From Candidatus Tayloriibacteriota bacterium (GTDB lineage: Bacteria > Patescibacteriota > Minisyncoccia > Phycocordibacterales > SIBU01), in the NCBI GenBank assembly GCA_016188455.1, contig JACPHR010000010.1, positions 3,655 to 67,654 on the forward strand: DNA of 64,000 bases, written 5' to 3'. The stretch's first letter is position 1. Every line of letters starts with the position of its first letter. The notes under the pieces were generated by a model. It had not been told where the DNA came from and did no database searches. It saw nothing but the letters and a program-made list of their open reading frames with translations. Positions 44,566 to 50,339 of the stretch are shown one piece after another. A program made the position numbers and the translations under genes.

Positions 44566-45021
44566 TCAAAACTTCATACTAACCTCATTCTGCCGAGGTT
44601 TTCTCAAAACAAGGAGTAGAAGAAGTCCGAGAATCAAAGTGGAGACTGCCTCCACCAAAAACAGCCCGTGATTGTAATTTGTTTGAGACGGGCCAACAAG
44701 CGCCCTGCCTCCCCCGCCGGTTTTTGGCAGTTGCGGCGTGGGTGTCGTGGCCGTCGGCGTAGAGGAAAAAGCGCTCGCGACCGAAGCCGCCTGGGCGGCC
44801 CTTAAAGGAACGGCGGCTCTTTGAGGAGCGACTGCCACTGGTCTTCGCGCCGACACGACAGTTCTTGGACCTTGACTTACGGCCAGCCGGGCGGCGCCGT
44901 ATTGGTAGGTAGTCGGGCTGTAAGAAACGATGCTCTTGATATATGTTTGCGCCGATGAGCTTGCGGGTGAAAGCGAAAGAAGCGCAAAAAGCGCGAGGGT
45001 TGAGAGGGTTTTTTTATCCAT
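44566..45021 (-). CDS. secreted Pro/Ala-rich protein with C-terminal LPKTG sortase-type sorting signal
   Basis: Signal peptide, then QLPKTGGGG, a hydrophobic stretch LILGLLLLLVL and a basic tail RKPRQ. Confidence 0.5.
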   Translation of the reverse strand: MDKKTLSTLALFALLSLSPASSSAQTYIKSIVSYSPTTYQYGAARLAVSQGPRTVVSARRPVAVAPQRAAVPLRAAQAASVASAFSSTPTATTPTPQLPKTGGGGRALVGPSQTNYNHGLFLVEAVSTLILGLLLLLVLRKPRQNEVSMKF

Positions 45022-45022
45022 A

Positions 45023-45373
45023 TTAGAGTGTCGTGGCGGTATTTTTGATGATAGTCACCAAGGCCGCGGCCGCAATCATGACGGTCATGCCGACTATGCC
45101 CCAAATCATCTGCCGGGCCCCCTTCCCCCGAGCTTCCGGGTCATCAGCAGAAGTGACAAAACCTTGAACGCCCCAAATAAATACCAGGGTGGCCAAGGCA
45201 AACATCAAAAACATCAGCGGCTTTAAGATGAAAGTGCTGATATTATTGACGAGCTTGTTAACTTCCGTTATACCCTCGGCAAAACCGAAAGCCGGCAGAA
45301 AGCTAAAAGCGGCAAAAATTAGCTTTTTCACAATTAAACGAACGCCAGTCACTTTTGCATTCTTACTCAACAT
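45023..45373 (-). CDS. T4SS-pilin-like (VirB2/TrbC-like) small membrane protein, paralog 1
   Basis: Signal peptide followed by two TM helices separated by ADDPEARGKGARQ, then IWGIVG. This pattern is shared by six genes in the array. Confidence 0.5.
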   Translation of the reverse strand: MLSKNAKVTGVRLIVKKLIFAAFSFLPAFGFAEGITEVNKLVNNISTFILKPLMFLMFALATLVFIWGVQGFVTSADDPEARGKGARQMIWGIVGMTVMIAAAALVTIIKNTATTL

Positions 45374-45770
45374 TTATATCTCCAGGAACAGTTGGAACCG
45401 TGACACCAGAAATGTCCTTGCTAAGATTTAACGAATTCTCCAGAATAGTCACCAACCCCCAAACCGAGAGCATGATGAAAATGCCGATGATTCCCCAAAT
45501 AATAAATTGCTTGGCGTTGGCCCGAGCTTCTTCGTCGGCGGCATTGCTGATGAAGCTAAAGACTCCGTAGATGACAACGAGGACAGCAAGACCGATAAGA
45601 AACGGAATGATGTAGTTTATAATCCGGTTGAGAGCGGTAATAAGACCGCCGATACCTGAGATATCAAACCCCACAGTTTTTTCAACAACTGGTGCAGGTT
45701 GGGCCGCCGCGACCTGGGCAAAACCGAGAAGAGCGGTGCCGAAAGAAGAACCCAAAATAAGCTTTTTCAT
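45363..45770 (-). CDS. T4SS-pilin-like small membrane protein, paralog 2
   Basis: Signal peptide (AQVAAAQP). IIPFLIGLAVLVVIYGV..ISNAADEEARANAKQFIIWGIIGIFIMLSVWGLV. Confidence 0.5.
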   Translation of the reverse strand: MKKLILGSSFGTALLGFAQVAAAQPAPVVEKTVGFDISGIGGLITALNRIINYIIPFLIGLAVLVVIYGVFSFISNAADEEARANAKQFIIWGIIGIFIMLSVWGLVTILENSLNLSKDISGVTVPTVPGDINVE

Positions 45771-46020
45771 TGTTAAAATTTGATTATTATGAACGACCTT
45801 TTAATAATAAAGACTTTCTCATAGTATACCCCTCCTAATCCGAATGGCAAGCGGGGTGTGGATAGCGGTATGCGAACAGCCTTGGCGAATAGGCACATGC
45901 GAATTAAGAAAGGTATGCGAATCCCAGTAGCAGAACAAGGCTCGCTACGGGACAGGTAGCCTTAACGAAACGAATAGGCACATGCGGATAAGCATGCGAA
46001 TCGCGAAATTCCCCCCCCCC

Positions 46021-48104: not shown

Positions 48105-48512
48105 CTAGGGTGTTGGACAGGTAAGGCCCGCGGTGCCCAACTGCTCGATGGTGCCGCAAACGACGGCGGAAAGCACTTTGGCGCCGAGAAGGATGGCAAT
48201 GCCGATAACCGTCCAGAGAAGGGCGGTTTTGGCTTCGCTTAACTTGTCTTCGTTGCCGCCGGCCATAACCATTTTGAAGCCCGAGTAAATCAGGAAAAAA
48301 ATCGCCACCACGCTGGCAATCGGGAAAACGGTGTCAAGCAACAAAGTGATAAACTTGAAAAGGGTGTCGTTTTCGCGGCCGAGAGGATTGGGAATGGTGG
48401 CTGACGTGTTGGTGACTATGTCGTGGTTGGTAGCCAAAACTAAAGCCCGCGGAAGGTAAAAAAGAAAGCCGGCGGCAACCCAAAAAAACTTTTTACTTCT
48501 TTTTATAAACAT
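48105..48512 (-). CDS. T4SS-pilin-like small membrane protein, paralog 5
   Basis: Signal peptide. VFPIASVVAIFFLIYSGFKMVMAGGNEDKLSEAKTALLWTVIGIAILLGA. Confidence 0.5.
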   Translation of the reverse strand: MFIKRSKKFFWVAAGFLFYLPRALVLATNHDIVTNTSATIPNPLGRENDTLFKFITLLLDTVFPIASVVAIFFLIYSGFKMVMAGGNEDKLSEAKTALLWTVIGIAILLGAKVLSAVVCGTIEQLGTAGLTCPTP

Positions 48513-48532
48513 GATAGATTTTGTTAGCTAGC

Positions 48533-48979
48533 TTAAGGTGTGGTCGGAGTCAACAACGACTTGAACTGGCTGTCTTTGATGAAACCGGCCTCAATGGCGT
48601 GAACGATAAGCCAAGCGGAGAGCATAATGAGAAAGCCGATAAGCACTTTGCCGAAAATTGACTTGGCCTGCTCTATTTTACTCATTTCGCCGCCAGCCGT
48701 CATCATCAGGAAACCGGCCCAGCCGAAAGCCACCGCCGAGAAGGCGGCCCCGAGAATGATGAGATAGTTGGTAATGTTCCCCACCAGCTTAACCAGGTCG
48801 GCCCAGCCGCAGTCATGCTTGAAGGCCGCGTTTATCGGCTGACCTTGTGCGTCAACCGCGTTCGAAGCGTAACCGCAAGGCACAATGGGCGACTGGGCCG
48901 CCGCCACGAGGGGCGCCGCCGCAAACAGACTAAAAACGATAGCTATGGCGCCGACAAAAATTGTTCCTCTCTGCAACAT
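48533..48979 (-). CDS. T4SS-pilin-like small membrane protein, paralog 6
   Basis: Signal peptide (AAAPLVAAAQSP). ..AGFLMMTAGGEMSKIEQAKSIFGKVLIGFLIMLSAWLIV. Confidence 0.5.
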   Translation of the reverse strand: MLQRGTIFVGAIAIVFSLFAAAPLVAAAQSPIVPCGYASNAVDAQGQPINAAFKHDCGWADLVKLVGNITNYLIILGAAFSAVAFGWAGFLMMTAGGEMSKIEQAKSIFGKVLIGFLIMLSAWLIVHAIEAGFIKDSQFKSLLTPTTP

Positions 48980-49058
48980 TGATTTTTACTTTTTACTTTT
49001 TCCCCAATTCTTACTGTATTTCTATTCTCTATTCTCTATTCTCTATTTTCTATGACTC

Positions 49059-50339
49059 CTAAAGTCCCCTCGACAAACCAATTAAATTTTGCCCCGCGAC
49101 GCTGATGGCCCGGCCGACCTCAAGCTCCCCGCCCGTCACGGATTCTATCATACTTTGAAAAACAGCCTGCGAGGCCGCGGGATTGGGGTCAAGCCAAGCG
49201 CGCGCTCTGACGGCCGAGTTGTAAAAAATGGTTTGATAAGGGTCATTGGGGCTCGGCGCGAGCATCGCCCGCCTGACCGGCGGCAGGCCGGTGGCTTGGC
49301 TCAAACGGCCGAGGGGGCCGGGGCCGGTGATGGCGACGGCCGCTTGGAGGGCGCCGACGGCGTTTCCGGAATTTTTGAGCACCGCCAGACCCTGCATCCG
49401 CCCAAAAGTAAGAGCCACCGAGGCGCCTTTGGGCTGAGGGAAGAAAGTGACGTCAAAATTGAGGTTGGGATTTTTATCGCGAATCTTGGCAATCTCCGAA
49501 GCAAAGCCGAAATAAAAAGCCAAGTCGCCGGCGGTAAACATCTCTCGGGAATTGCTAAGCGCCCGGTTCCAGGCGTAATCCGGCTTGACCGGATTGGCAA
49601 AATCGGTATAAAAATTGAGGGCGCCGACGGTGCCGAGAGTGGGCGGGGTGAGCTTGACCTCAAGGCCGGCCGGGCCGTAGGCGGTGATGGGGTTGCCGGT
49701 CTGCATCAGGAGGGCGGCGATAATCTCTTTAGCGTTGGTGATATTGCGGAACTCGCCCAAAGCCACGGCGCTTTTCAAGATATTGAGATTCTTGTCTTTG
49801 ACGGTAAGCTTTGGCGCGAGAGCGATAAACTCGTTCCAAAACGCCGGCGGCAGGGACAAGCCGGCGTTTATAAGCAGATCGCGATTCCAATACATCACCA
49901 GCGGGTCAACGGCGAAAGGCAGGGCGATAATGCCGGCGTCGTCCAAATAGAGCTCCGCTTCCTGAATGAAAGTATTTTTGAACGTCGGCAGCGACATTGA
50001 GCTGTAAGACAAAGGCAAAACCTTGCCGCGGTATCTCATAATCAAGTCCTGCGGCAGCAGAATGGCGTCCGGCCCGACGCCCGAGGCCAGCGCTTCTATC
50101 AACCCCTGGTCAAAACTTTCCGGCTTCTTCTCAATGTAGGTGAGTTTCAAACCGGCCTTGCCCTGCTTGAGGTCGGCGACGGCGTTGTTAAACTCCGCGA
50201 CGGGCATTGTGCCCCAGATGACGACGGGGAAACTATTGCCGCGATTGGCGCTTTTAGTGGTGGCAAGCACAATCACGCCGGCGATAATCGCCAGAGCGAA
50301 AACGGCGAGAGTGATGGCTTGGAAAGGGGTAATCTTCAT
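49059..50339 (-). CDS. membrane-anchored extracellular solute-binding-protein-like (SBP family 1 fold) protein
   Basis: N-terminal TM anchor, then a periplasmic-binding-protein-like domain. No permease or ATPase genes are adjacent. Confidence 0.55.
   Translation of the reverse strand: MKITPFQAITLAVFALAIIAGVIVLATTKSANRGNSFPVVIWGTMPVAEFNNAVADLKQGKAGLKLTYIEKKPESFDQGLIEALASGVGPDAILLPQDLIMRYRGKVLPLSYSSMSLPTFKNTFIQEAELYLDDAGIIALPFAVDPLVMYWNRDLLINAGLSLPPAFWNEFIALAPKLTVKDKNLNILKSAVALGEFRNITNAKEIIAALLMQTGNPITAYGPAGLEVKLTPPTLGTVGALNFYTDFANPVKPDYAWNRALSNSREMFTAGDLAFYFGFASEIAKIRDKNPNLNFDVTFFPQPKGASVALTFGRMQGLAVLKNSGNAVGALQAAVAITGPGPLGRLSQATGLPPVRRAMLAPSPNDPYQTIFYNSAVRARAWLDPNPAASQAVFQSMIESVTGGELEVGRAISVAGQNLIGLSRGL

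Follow-up and report, generated by a model that had tools for sequence, protein, structure and literature searches.

The 64,000-nucleotide stretch of DNA analysed here, referred to as the window, belongs to contig JACPHR010000010.1 of a Candidatus Tayloriibacteriota bacterium and encodes six small pilin-like proteins within nine consecutive minus-strand open reading frames (ORFs) at 44566-50339. Its sequence identifies this locus as the Candidatus Taylorbacteria copy of the VirB2/TrbC-like (PF18895) pilin array of Patescibacteria. A VirB2-like pilin array in a candidate phyla radiation (CPR) bacterium has already been published; what is new is the architecture found in the class Paceibacteria. 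On the sequences compared here, the array of this class is detached from virB4, is coupled to genes for a solute-binding-protein-like (SBP-like) protein and a methyltransferase, consists of five fixed orthologous groups and, in one clade, carries a fusion of two pilin domains, the di-pilin.

The coordinates and lengths of all nine genes agree between our ORF listing and a first-pass annotation made from the letters of the window alone. That annotation had also supposed a CPR-like organism, which is borne out by the window's GyrA, 83% identical to those of Candidatus Taylorbacteria Baikal-deep-G184 and of a Patescibacteria metagenome-assembled genome (MAG), and by a protein identical to the di-pilin, deposited at NCBI as HYV67_01905 from a Candidatus Taylorbacteria MAG. 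The organism accordingly belongs to the Paceibacteria (Parcubacteria), not to the Saccharibacteria. As a whole the window is ordinary chromosomal DNA, with genes for GyrA, TopA, SerRS, HisRS, IF-2, ClpB, DprA, ParB, RelA/SpoT, FtsA, FtsZ, LepB and seven tRNAs, and an Rfam scan of it found nothing but tRNAs.

Family membership of the pilin-like proteins

In the direction of transcription the array comprises pil148 (48533-48979, 148 amino acids), pil135b (48105-48512, 135 amino acids), pil142 (47644-48072, 142 amino acids for the longest ORF), the di-pilin gene (46021-46758, 245 amino acids), pil135a (45363-45770, 135 amino acids) and pil116 (45023-45373, 116 amino acids, or 102 in the NCBI call), all on the minus strand. 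The series is interrupted once, by a gene for an Ala-rich protein, and pil116 overlaps pil135a by 11 nt. All six products match the T4SS_pilin family, PF18895, T4SS standing for type IV secretion system. Five exceed its curated gathering cut-off of 26.6 bits: the di-pilin (56.1 bits, in two stretches), pil135b (38.0 bits), pil116 (36.6 bits), pil135a (34.9 bits) and pil148 (32.2 bits). Pil142 falls below it, at 22.2 bits (E 1.5e-4), and scores 127.5 bits against a hidden Markov model (HMM) of the window's seven domains, pil142 itself included. This HMM found no further pilin copy in the window. A PF18895 profile search was the check that the first-pass annotation had named for the T4SS_pilin layout it proposed, and the layout stands. 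The W.(I/V)(I/L)G motif it described as conserved is present in five of the seven domains but not in all.

For comparison, loci anchored on GyrA were collected from one genome per species, keeping 10 kb on each side; the ORFs of the resulting 80 loci were searched with the domain HMM and the window proteins. In 30 five-gene arrays from this set, 146 of the 150 proteins match PF18895 (E ≤ 1e-3). At the same threshold 28 of the 150 also match the TrbC/VirB2 family (PF04956, gathering cut-off 27.9 bits), with a best E value of 2.9e-8, and these matches of orthologues support a remote homology to TrbC/VirB2. In the window itself, pil116 (23.1 bits, E 8.6e-5, model positions 8-97 of 98) and pil135b (20.0 bits, E 7.9e-4) give sub-threshold matches to PF04956, and the NCBIfam VirB2 model PRK13857 gives the window proteins 15.1 against a cut-off of 103. 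The best NCBIfam match of all six is to the Mbov_0395-family of pilin-like conjugal transfer proteins from Mycoplasma integrative and conjugative elements (NF045849), for which the di-pilin lies above the cut-off (48.8 versus 40 bits) and the other five below it (13-37 bits). Proteins of the Mbov_0395 family likewise come from a wall-reduced monoderm host but are encoded by a single gene on a mobile element. NCBI names some homologues of the array proteins 'pilin'.

Sequence, alignment and AlphaFold2 (AF2) models agree on a common architecture, in which an export signal precedes a hydrophobic hairpin of two helices joined by a short charged loop (hairpin confidence, pLDDT, 75-79). Judged by eye, the signal peptides of all six are of the SPase-I type with an A-x-A ending. 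Pil142 has such a signal peptide if it starts at Met34 (47973), which is probably its true start; one automatic gene call begins at Met56 and yields 87 amino acids. The mature pil135a is modelled as a plain two-helix hairpin (H17-52/H57-93, pLDDT 74.7). Pil148 carries an extracellular N-terminal segment of about 40 residues with a Cys pair between its signal peptide and its hairpin. The pair recurs in the consensus of the corresponding group in relatives (P1, described below) as LVPxCxG...PCxF, although its conservation is only partial.

The six proteins might instead be unrelated small two-transmembrane (two-TM) proteins, holin-like or serving as anchors, that are pilin-like in composition only. 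Their hairpins lack a significant structural match to pilins, there are many weak Pfam matches to unrelated TM families, and some orthologues anchor large extracellular domains. Yet PF18895 is matched consistently above its cut-off and TrbC down to E 2.9e-8, homologues in other classes sit in T4SS clusters in the published tables we draw on, and the array has a housekeeping context with no lysin or phage genes. Nor did the searches bring out the contrary result considered in the first-pass annotation, assignment to an unrelated family such as holins: alongside the PF18895 matches, a PHROG scan returned no holin and a sole hit to a family of unknown function (E 0.006), while the PADLOC scan of the array proteins gave chance-level matches only. 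A relationship to type IV pilins was likewise not found, as the proteins show neither a PF07963/N_methyl match nor a class III signal peptide. We consider it highly improbable that the resemblance to pilins is one of composition only.

The di-pilin and membrane topology

One gene had been read in the first-pass annotation as an in-frame tandem fusion of two pilin domains, a reading that holds up on three counts: the product contains two PF18895 stretches, in its AF2 model (43 homologues, pLDDT 78.6) two hairpins (H41-77/H82-115 and H144-179/H184-217) come after a signal helix at the N-terminus, and about 40 protein clusters, formed at 90% identity, share the two-domain length. The hairpin domains lie at residues ~41-115 and ~144-217 and are joined by an extracellular linker of about 28 amino acids. 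The two-domain clusters are 49-68% identical, all contain PF18895 and several are named Candidatus Taylorbacteria. Two-domain genes also occupy the same array position in four of the comparison loci (L008, L009, L083 and L091). Given these clusters and this shared position, the di-pilin is a conserved gene of its clade and not a frameshift artefact. Its N-terminal half is 46% identical to its C-terminal half, and the two are 55% and 50% identical, respectively, to pil135a. This mutual identity of 46-55% indicates that the two halves and pil135a arose by lineage-specific duplication.

VirB2 and TraA keep both termini on the outer side of the membrane and the charged loop on the inner side. The tandem di-pilin and the domain fusions of relatives fit this topology. 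A tandem fusion is topologically possible only with both termini on the same, outer side, so both ends of each hairpin would lie outside the cell. In relatives, the pilin hairpin of the first array protein often stands C-terminal to long extracellular domains (TIG, Fn3, PKD, CHB_HEX_C), and the fifth protein sometimes continues past an N-terminal hairpin into a long C-terminal extension.

Five positional orthologues across Paceibacteria

The gene order gyrA, methyltransferase, SBP-like protein, pilin-like genes is conserved, down to about 60% GyrA identity, in nearly all loci with enough downstream DNA. The block running from gyrA through the methyltransferase and SBP-like genes to five pilin-like genes (P1 to P5) occurs in MAGs named Taylor-, Nomura-, Kaiser-, Vogel- and Adlerbacteria, and independent gene calls with precomputed Pfam matches confirm it in L091, L094 and L095. 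The methyltransferase gene is present in 67 of the 80 loci and the SBP-like gene in 73, always directly before P1. Complete arrays number 51, most often with five pilin-like genes (31 arrays); 11 have six and three have seven. A protein search with the domain profile reached no other classes, and two divergent matches (L094 and L095) turned out to be the gyrA array again.

Within the 31 five-gene arrays, the best match of a protein in another genome is usually found at the same position. This holds for 800 of 918 comparisons at position 1, 810 of 930 at position 2, 760 of 930 at position 4 and 907 of 930 at position 5; at position 3 it holds for 483 of 930. The median score is 68.9 bits between proteins at the same position in different genomes, compared with 39.3 bits between different positions in one genome, and each position group has its own consensus sequence. 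Taken together, the positional best matches and group consensus sequences define P1 to P5 as an old set of five distinct orthologous groups, which appear to be ancient, non-interchangeable paralogues and not the outcome of recent or antigenic diversification.

Three of the window proteins are readily placed in this scheme. Pil148 finds its best match at position 1 in 28 of the 31 five-gene arrays, pil135b at position 2 in 29 and pil116 at position 5 in 28, making them the P1-, P2- and P5-type proteins, respectively. The best matches of pil135a, which stands at the P4 position, are split between position 4 (13 arrays) and position 3 (12), and those of the additional protein pil142 are scattered over positions 3-5. 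Proteins of the pil142 type are confined to L007, L008, L009, L083 and same-species Logan contigs. The middle groups, P3 and P4, gave rise to pil142, both di-pilin halves and pil135a by duplication in this lineage.

The first-pass annotation suggested antigenic or functional diversification of a surface structure, and the survey of arrays published as PMC12102498 similarly proposes host-range or antigenic versatility. Under such an explanation the paralogues would be interchangeable variants of a major pilin, serving antigenic variation or host-range switching in the way proposed for the VirB2 paralogues of Bartonella and Anaplasma. The window paralogues are indeed only 21-55% identical to one another, the middle group has undergone lineage-specific duplication, and a homopolymer of variable length lies between two array genes. 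This tract, G10 on the coding strand, occupies 46011-46020 directly 3' of the di-pilin stop codon; it is G10 in the window, L002 and L004 and G9 in L001 and L003, and contigs L005 and L006 end inside it. The difference may reflect real length variation by slippage or a sequencing or assembly artefact; this doubt and the tract's intergenic position speak against the explanation.

Against interchangeability stand the positional orthology found throughout the class with its group-specific motifs, the modal number of five genes (31 of 51 complete arrays) and the individual essentiality of the six Southlakia epibionticum homologues, as tabulated in the study discussed below. Variation within the species is also slight. 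Nine short assemblies from other samples, all from one sequencing project, carry an identical di-pilin; four of them overlap the array, with 99.7-99.9% identity to the window. Apart from the G tract, they differ from it by three single-nucleotide polymorphisms, each at a third codon position of pil116, and by clustered changes in the spacer between pil142 and the Ala-rich gene; these same-species assemblies show no copy-number change and no sign of hypervariability. Variation of this kind across strains was a check named in the first-pass annotation, and its outcome, together with the ancient positional orthologues, does not favour antigenic diversification. Shorn of its antigenic part, that suggestion is still best read as functional diversification of a surface structure, and we assign only a small probability to interchangeable variants.

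SBP-like protein, methyltransferase and proposed transcription units

The SBP-like protein (49059-50339, minus strand, 426 amino acids) matches PF13416 (62.9 bits) and PF01547 (58.2 bits) and has a MalE/sugar-type family-1 solute-binding fold, with remote PDB matches to MalE and sugar-binding SBPs. Its relatives are 45-78% identical across Paceibacteria, and it is far better conserved than the pilin-like proteins. It had been described in the first-pass annotation as a solute-binding-like lipoprotein. The solute-binding fold, conserved in 73 of the 80 loci, supports the first half of that description, but the N-terminus is a hydrophobic anchor or signal sequence without a lipobox Cys; without any Cys in its N-terminal region, the protein is no lipoprotein. 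Genes for an ABC permease or ATPase adjoin it neither in the window nor in the gene tables of L091, L094 and L095.

The gene preceding it (50448-50972, minus strand) encodes a class I S-adenosylmethionine-dependent methyltransferase of 174 amino acids without a signal peptide, matching Pfam Methyltransf_31/11/25; no NCBIfam model reaches its cut-off for this protein. The protein also has a strong PADLOC match, to 'mad2' (E 2.6e-22). What PADLOC recognises here is the class I methyltransferase domain in general, and the neighbourhood of the gene showed no further defence gene.

Both genes are closely spaced with the array in relatives. The SBP-like gene and P1 are 4-9 nt apart or overlap in L091, L094 and L095, and the methyltransferase and SBP-like genes overlap by 4 nt or are separated by 3 nt in L094 and L095. 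Over all loci, with starts adjusted by homology, the median junctions are 8 nt for methyltransferase-SBP and 19 nt for SBP-P1; those of the window are wider, at 108 nt and 79 nt. A functional link of the methyltransferase, and likewise of the SBP-like protein, to the array would be in keeping with this arrangement.

Within the array of relatives the only wide junction is that between P3 and P4, with a median of 92 nt as opposed to 8-16 nt elsewhere; independent gene calls give 113 nt in L094 and 65 nt in L095. In the window the array is split by a 250-nt gap upstream of pil135a. The best promoter consensus match of the region (TTGCCA-16-TATACT, 10 of 12 positions, 45823-45850, minus strand) lies inside this gap, about 50 nt upstream of pil135a. 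Based on the spacing and the consensus match, we infer two transcription units, one running from the methyltransferase and SBP-like genes through P1, P2 and P3, and a second for P4 and P5. The last genes of the second unit are followed by a terminator-like palindromic hairpin at 44153-44192 (perfect 18-bp stem, 4-nt loop), which lies past an 85-amino-acid ORF without a family match (44252-44509, minus strand).

The octamer TTCGCATR occurs in four copies upstream of pil135a (45869-46000) and in two upstream of the SBP-like gene (50365-50427). The whole window contains 14 copies, where 5.85 are expected, and none of 100 shuffles reached 14. As a regulator site the octamer was dropped, since it is not conserved at equivalent positions in relatives.

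Relation to published pilin arrays and type IV secretion

VirB2 arrays of Patescibacteria have been described as groups of 2-11 genes with a mean identity of about 25% and a maximum of 54% (Quinonero-Coronel 2025, PMC12102498). They stand in tandem or with one non-pilin gene between, are chromosomal and lack a relaxase. The set includes the essential array of S. epibionticum and the 'Sec secreted array' of TM7x (McLean 2020, cited in PMC12102498), and Microgenomatia and Saccharimonadia are named as classes rich in arrays. The window array has the features by which these arrays were recognised, namely at least two VirB2-like genes in tandem, low identity between paralogues and location on a Patescibacteria chromosome: its six genes are 21-55% identical, it is chromosomal, and it lacks a relaxase. 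It differs in that the published arrays lie near virB4, belong mostly to Microgenomatia and Saccharimonadia and were interpreted in terms of versatility, where the present data suggest fixed roles. Homologues of virB4 within about 20 genes, a feature of the published set, were found neither in the window, which ends about 15 genes from the array on the right-hand side, nor within 10 kb of gyrA in the 80 relatives.

One member of the published set is the array of S. epibionticum ML1, where SEML1_0014-0019 are six consecutive PF18895 genes, each essential, beside VirB6/PrgI/VirB4-like genes in the tables of Wang 2023 (PMC10633639). Those six genes are also small and divergent (103-185 amino acids), and some additionally match PF04956. 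The essentiality of each fits the non-redundancy deduced here from positional orthology. However, the S. epibionticum array is embedded in a T4SS cluster, whereas the window array has no T4SS gene beside it; the text and tables consulted from that study record neither an SBP-like or methyltransferase partner nor a two-domain fusion; and S. epibionticum belongs to the Saccharimonadia, not the Paceibacteria.

The arrays of PMC12102498 are those near virB4 (Fig. S9 legend of that paper), and the PF18895 hits consulted in its Table S3 all carry the entry 'VirB4 proximity = Yes'. Paceibacteria in that table, for example Nomurabacteria, have virB4, trsD and virB3 with a single PF18895 gene, near dnaA/dnaN. 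The paper makes no mention of gyrA, a solute-binding protein or fused pilins. By its legend and table, the gyrA-linked Paceibacteria array would lie outside the neighbourhood surveyed. Restriction of the survey to the virB4 neighbourhood would explain why arrays are reported mainly in Microgenomatia and Saccharimonadia, and arrays at a distance from virB4, the gyrA-linked one among them, may be missing from published counts.

In T4SS of Gram-negative bacteria, VirB2, TrbC or TraA is encoded by one pilin gene in the virB, trb or tra operon and forms a homopolymer, with VirB5 at the tip; such pili may or may not contain lipid, and the subunits TrbC and VirB2 are cyclised. The proteins described here share with these pilins a Sec signal, two hydrophobic helices, a short charged loop, both termini outside and a core of about 70 residues. 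They differ in having at least five conserved paralogues, a monoderm host and no adjacent T4SS genes. A 2025 review of T4SS describes the Patescibacteria arrays as the sole exception to the absence of VirB2 from monoderm systems and treats pilus formation as an open possibility (PMC12857230). A further parallel, by analogy only, is with type IV pili, in which several conserved, non-interchangeable small subunits are encoded together and comprise an adhesin class and a bulk class; these pili belong to an unrelated family, carry a class III signal peptide and N_methyl domain that the array proteins lack, and have another fold and other assembly ATPases.

We favour, with slightly better than even confidence, a mechanism in which the array encodes a heteromeric surface fibre or conduit for host contact, assembled by a T4SS. 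The pilin-like proteins would be exported by Sec and cut by signal peptidase I, after which each would reside in the membrane as a helix-loop-helix hairpin whose two ends face outward, as sequence, AF2 models and the fusions of relatives suggest. P1 would be the adhesin-carrying or initiating subunit, a role proposed because of the fusions in relatives; P4 and P5, presumably expressed from their own promoter, would be the bulk subunits, a proposal that draws also on the promoter-like consensus match. Assembly would be carried out by machinery of the VirB4/TrsD/VirB3/VirB6 type encoded elsewhere in Paceibacteria, near dnaA, and the resulting structure would serve host-cell contact in an episymbiotic lifestyle.

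Several observations weigh against this mechanism. The window proteins fall short of the TrbC/VirB2 cut-off. Foldseek brought up no significant PDB match among solved conjugative pilins, and a sequence profile of the seven domains searched against PDB found no relative, returning designed helical proteins only; moreover, a two-helix hairpin is a low-information fold. The division of labour between P1 as tip and P4 and P5 as bulk is suggested solely by the fusions in relatives and the promoter-like match. In no Patescibacterium has such a pilus been observed, and the 2025 review calls it a possibility (PMC12857230). There is also no VirB4-like gene within 10 kb of gyrA in the 80 relatives, where the sole recurrent large ORF with a Walker-A motif is IF-2. 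The first-pass annotation had reported no secretion ATPase in the window, and this is correct: neither VirB4 nor VirD4 was found in its 64 kb, which cover at least 20 genes on one side of the array and about 15 on the right-hand side to the window end. All ORFs of at least 500 amino acids are assigned (an FAD oxidase, a 2475-amino-acid surface protein, TopA, RelA/SpoT, IF-2, ClpB and GyrA), and no T4SS family was found among the other window ORFs scanned. Since no T4SS gene occurs in the window or near gyrA, the link to a T4SS comes from family homology and from other classes; with the presence of virB4 in the phylum, these make T4SS dependence of the Paceibacteria array plausible without proving it.

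These same absences leave room for an apparatus independent of any T4SS: a membrane or surface complex made up of the five hairpin proteins and the translationally coupled SBP-like protein, such as a device for ligand capture, uptake or adhesion, that would share only ancestry with conjugative pilins. In Paceibacteria the array is always accompanied by the SBP-like gene and never by virB4; conservation of the SBP-like protein greatly exceeds that of the pilins, and neither an ABC permease nor an ATPase lies near it as a partner; and, according to Table S3 of PMC12102498, a separate single PF18895 gene belongs to the virB4 locus in Paceibacteria. On the other hand, homologous arrays of Saccharimonadia and Microgenomatia lie inside or beside a virB4 cluster, and linkage to the SBP-like gene is by itself weak evidence, as the wider neighbourhood (LepB, Pth, S1, MBL and gyrA) is also syntenic. 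We also know of no precedent for transport that combines an SBP with VirB2-like proteins. An apparatus of this kind, although the main rival, is in our view unlikely, and T4SS-dependent assembly of a heteromeric fibre or conduit remains the preferred explanation.

Lineage-specific secreted proteins and genomic context

The two remaining genes of the cluster encode secreted proteins for which no family was found in Pfam, NCBIfam, PHROG or PADLOC. The Ala-rich protein that interrupts the array (Ala225; 46789-47466, minus strand, 225 amino acids; 26% Ala, 12% Thr, 10% Lys) is encoded only on same-species contigs, and its gene is absent between the corresponding genes of L008, L009, L083 and L091. 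At the other end of the cluster, the start of the LPKTG gene (44566-45021, minus strand) lies 1 nt past the pil116 stop codon; its product has 151 amino acids and is rich in Pro, Ala, Ser and Thr, and homologues occur only in the same species and in L009, there on the opposite strand. The first-pass annotation took it for a sorting-signal protein. The LPKTG motif is present at residue 98, followed by a 19-residue spacer, a hydrophobic segment LVEAVSTLILGLLLLLVL and the basic tail RKPRQ, but the score against the NCBIfam LPXTG anchor model TIGR01167 (11.4 bits) is below the cut-off of 15.9, the spacer is 19 residues long, and the signal is unproven. No sortase was found among the window ORFs scanned. 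A kinship of the two proteins to unknown genes 3' of the L091 array was considered and rejected, as no similarity was found. Restricted as they are to this species or its closest relative, neither gene counts as a conserved component of the cluster in which the first-pass annotation placed both, and both are additions specific to this lineage.

Two plus-strand genes without a family match are convergent on the array. The product of one (41069-42382) has 437 amino acids, with an N-terminal TM segment and a tail rich in Ala; that of the other (42636-43640) has 334 amino acids and about five TM segments. Neither is conserved beside the array in relatives, apart from one match, in L037. Genes for Trypsin_2, TruD and ClpB follow the array on the same strand in relatives (L091, 15354-21287). 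Their counterparts in the window, at 33117-39314, are on the opposite strand, indicating an inversion, in this lineage, of the DNA that lies downstream of the array. On the other side, at a distance of 7.6 kb, is the gene for signal peptidase I, LepB (57919-58563, plus strand). This gene is part of the wider conserved neighbourhood of LepB, Pth, S1, MBL and gyrA, found also in L094 and L095, and its linkage to the array is probably coincidental.

Further from the array, an ORF of 2475 amino acids (3686-11113, minus strand) contains CarboxypepD_reg, Big_5, lamin-tail and peptidoglycan-binding domains and lies in a region whose G+C content is raised to 0.57-0.59. Giant surface proteins are typical of CPR genomes, and this one is a possible adhesin. 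A PaaX central/Cas2-like domain (PF20803, with a weak PF09827 match) occurs in two proteins of about 190-200 amino acids, encoded at 27458-28057 (minus strand) and 56238-56813 (plus strand); no CRISPR array or other cas gene was found in the window beside these two. Finally, a gene for a PemK/MazF-type toxin is located at the left edge of the window (97-480, minus strand).

Implications for Patescibacteria

A large part of bacterial diversity belongs to the Patescibacteria, which live in dependence on host cells and of which the Paceibacteria are the largest class. In the one species tested, S. epibionticum, the T4SS and pilin array are essential, according to the tables of that study (PMC10633639). 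If the five-paralogue array, the coupled orphan SBP-like protein and perhaps the methyltransferase formed one dedicated machine, a heteromeric VirB2-like tube might carry adhesins on P1 while the SBP-like protein imports host molecules. We regard so complete a picture as quite unlikely. Were it true, this would be the first conjugative-type pilus to consist of several obligatorily different subunits, to come from a monoderm and to serve uptake instead of export, and the di-pilin fusion would record which subunits are neighbours in the polymer.

Independently of that picture, the Paceibacteria array represents a set of five fixed subunits that has long been kept, uncoupled from virB4 and tightly linked to an SBP-like protein. 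The fixed set argues against simple antigenic variation, and the distance from virB4 suggests that surveys restricted to the virB4 neighbourhood under-count such arrays. The natural di-pilin fusion provides a neighbour constraint for modelling, and the proposed subunit roles and a possible interaction between the SBP-like protein and the pilins are testable targets.

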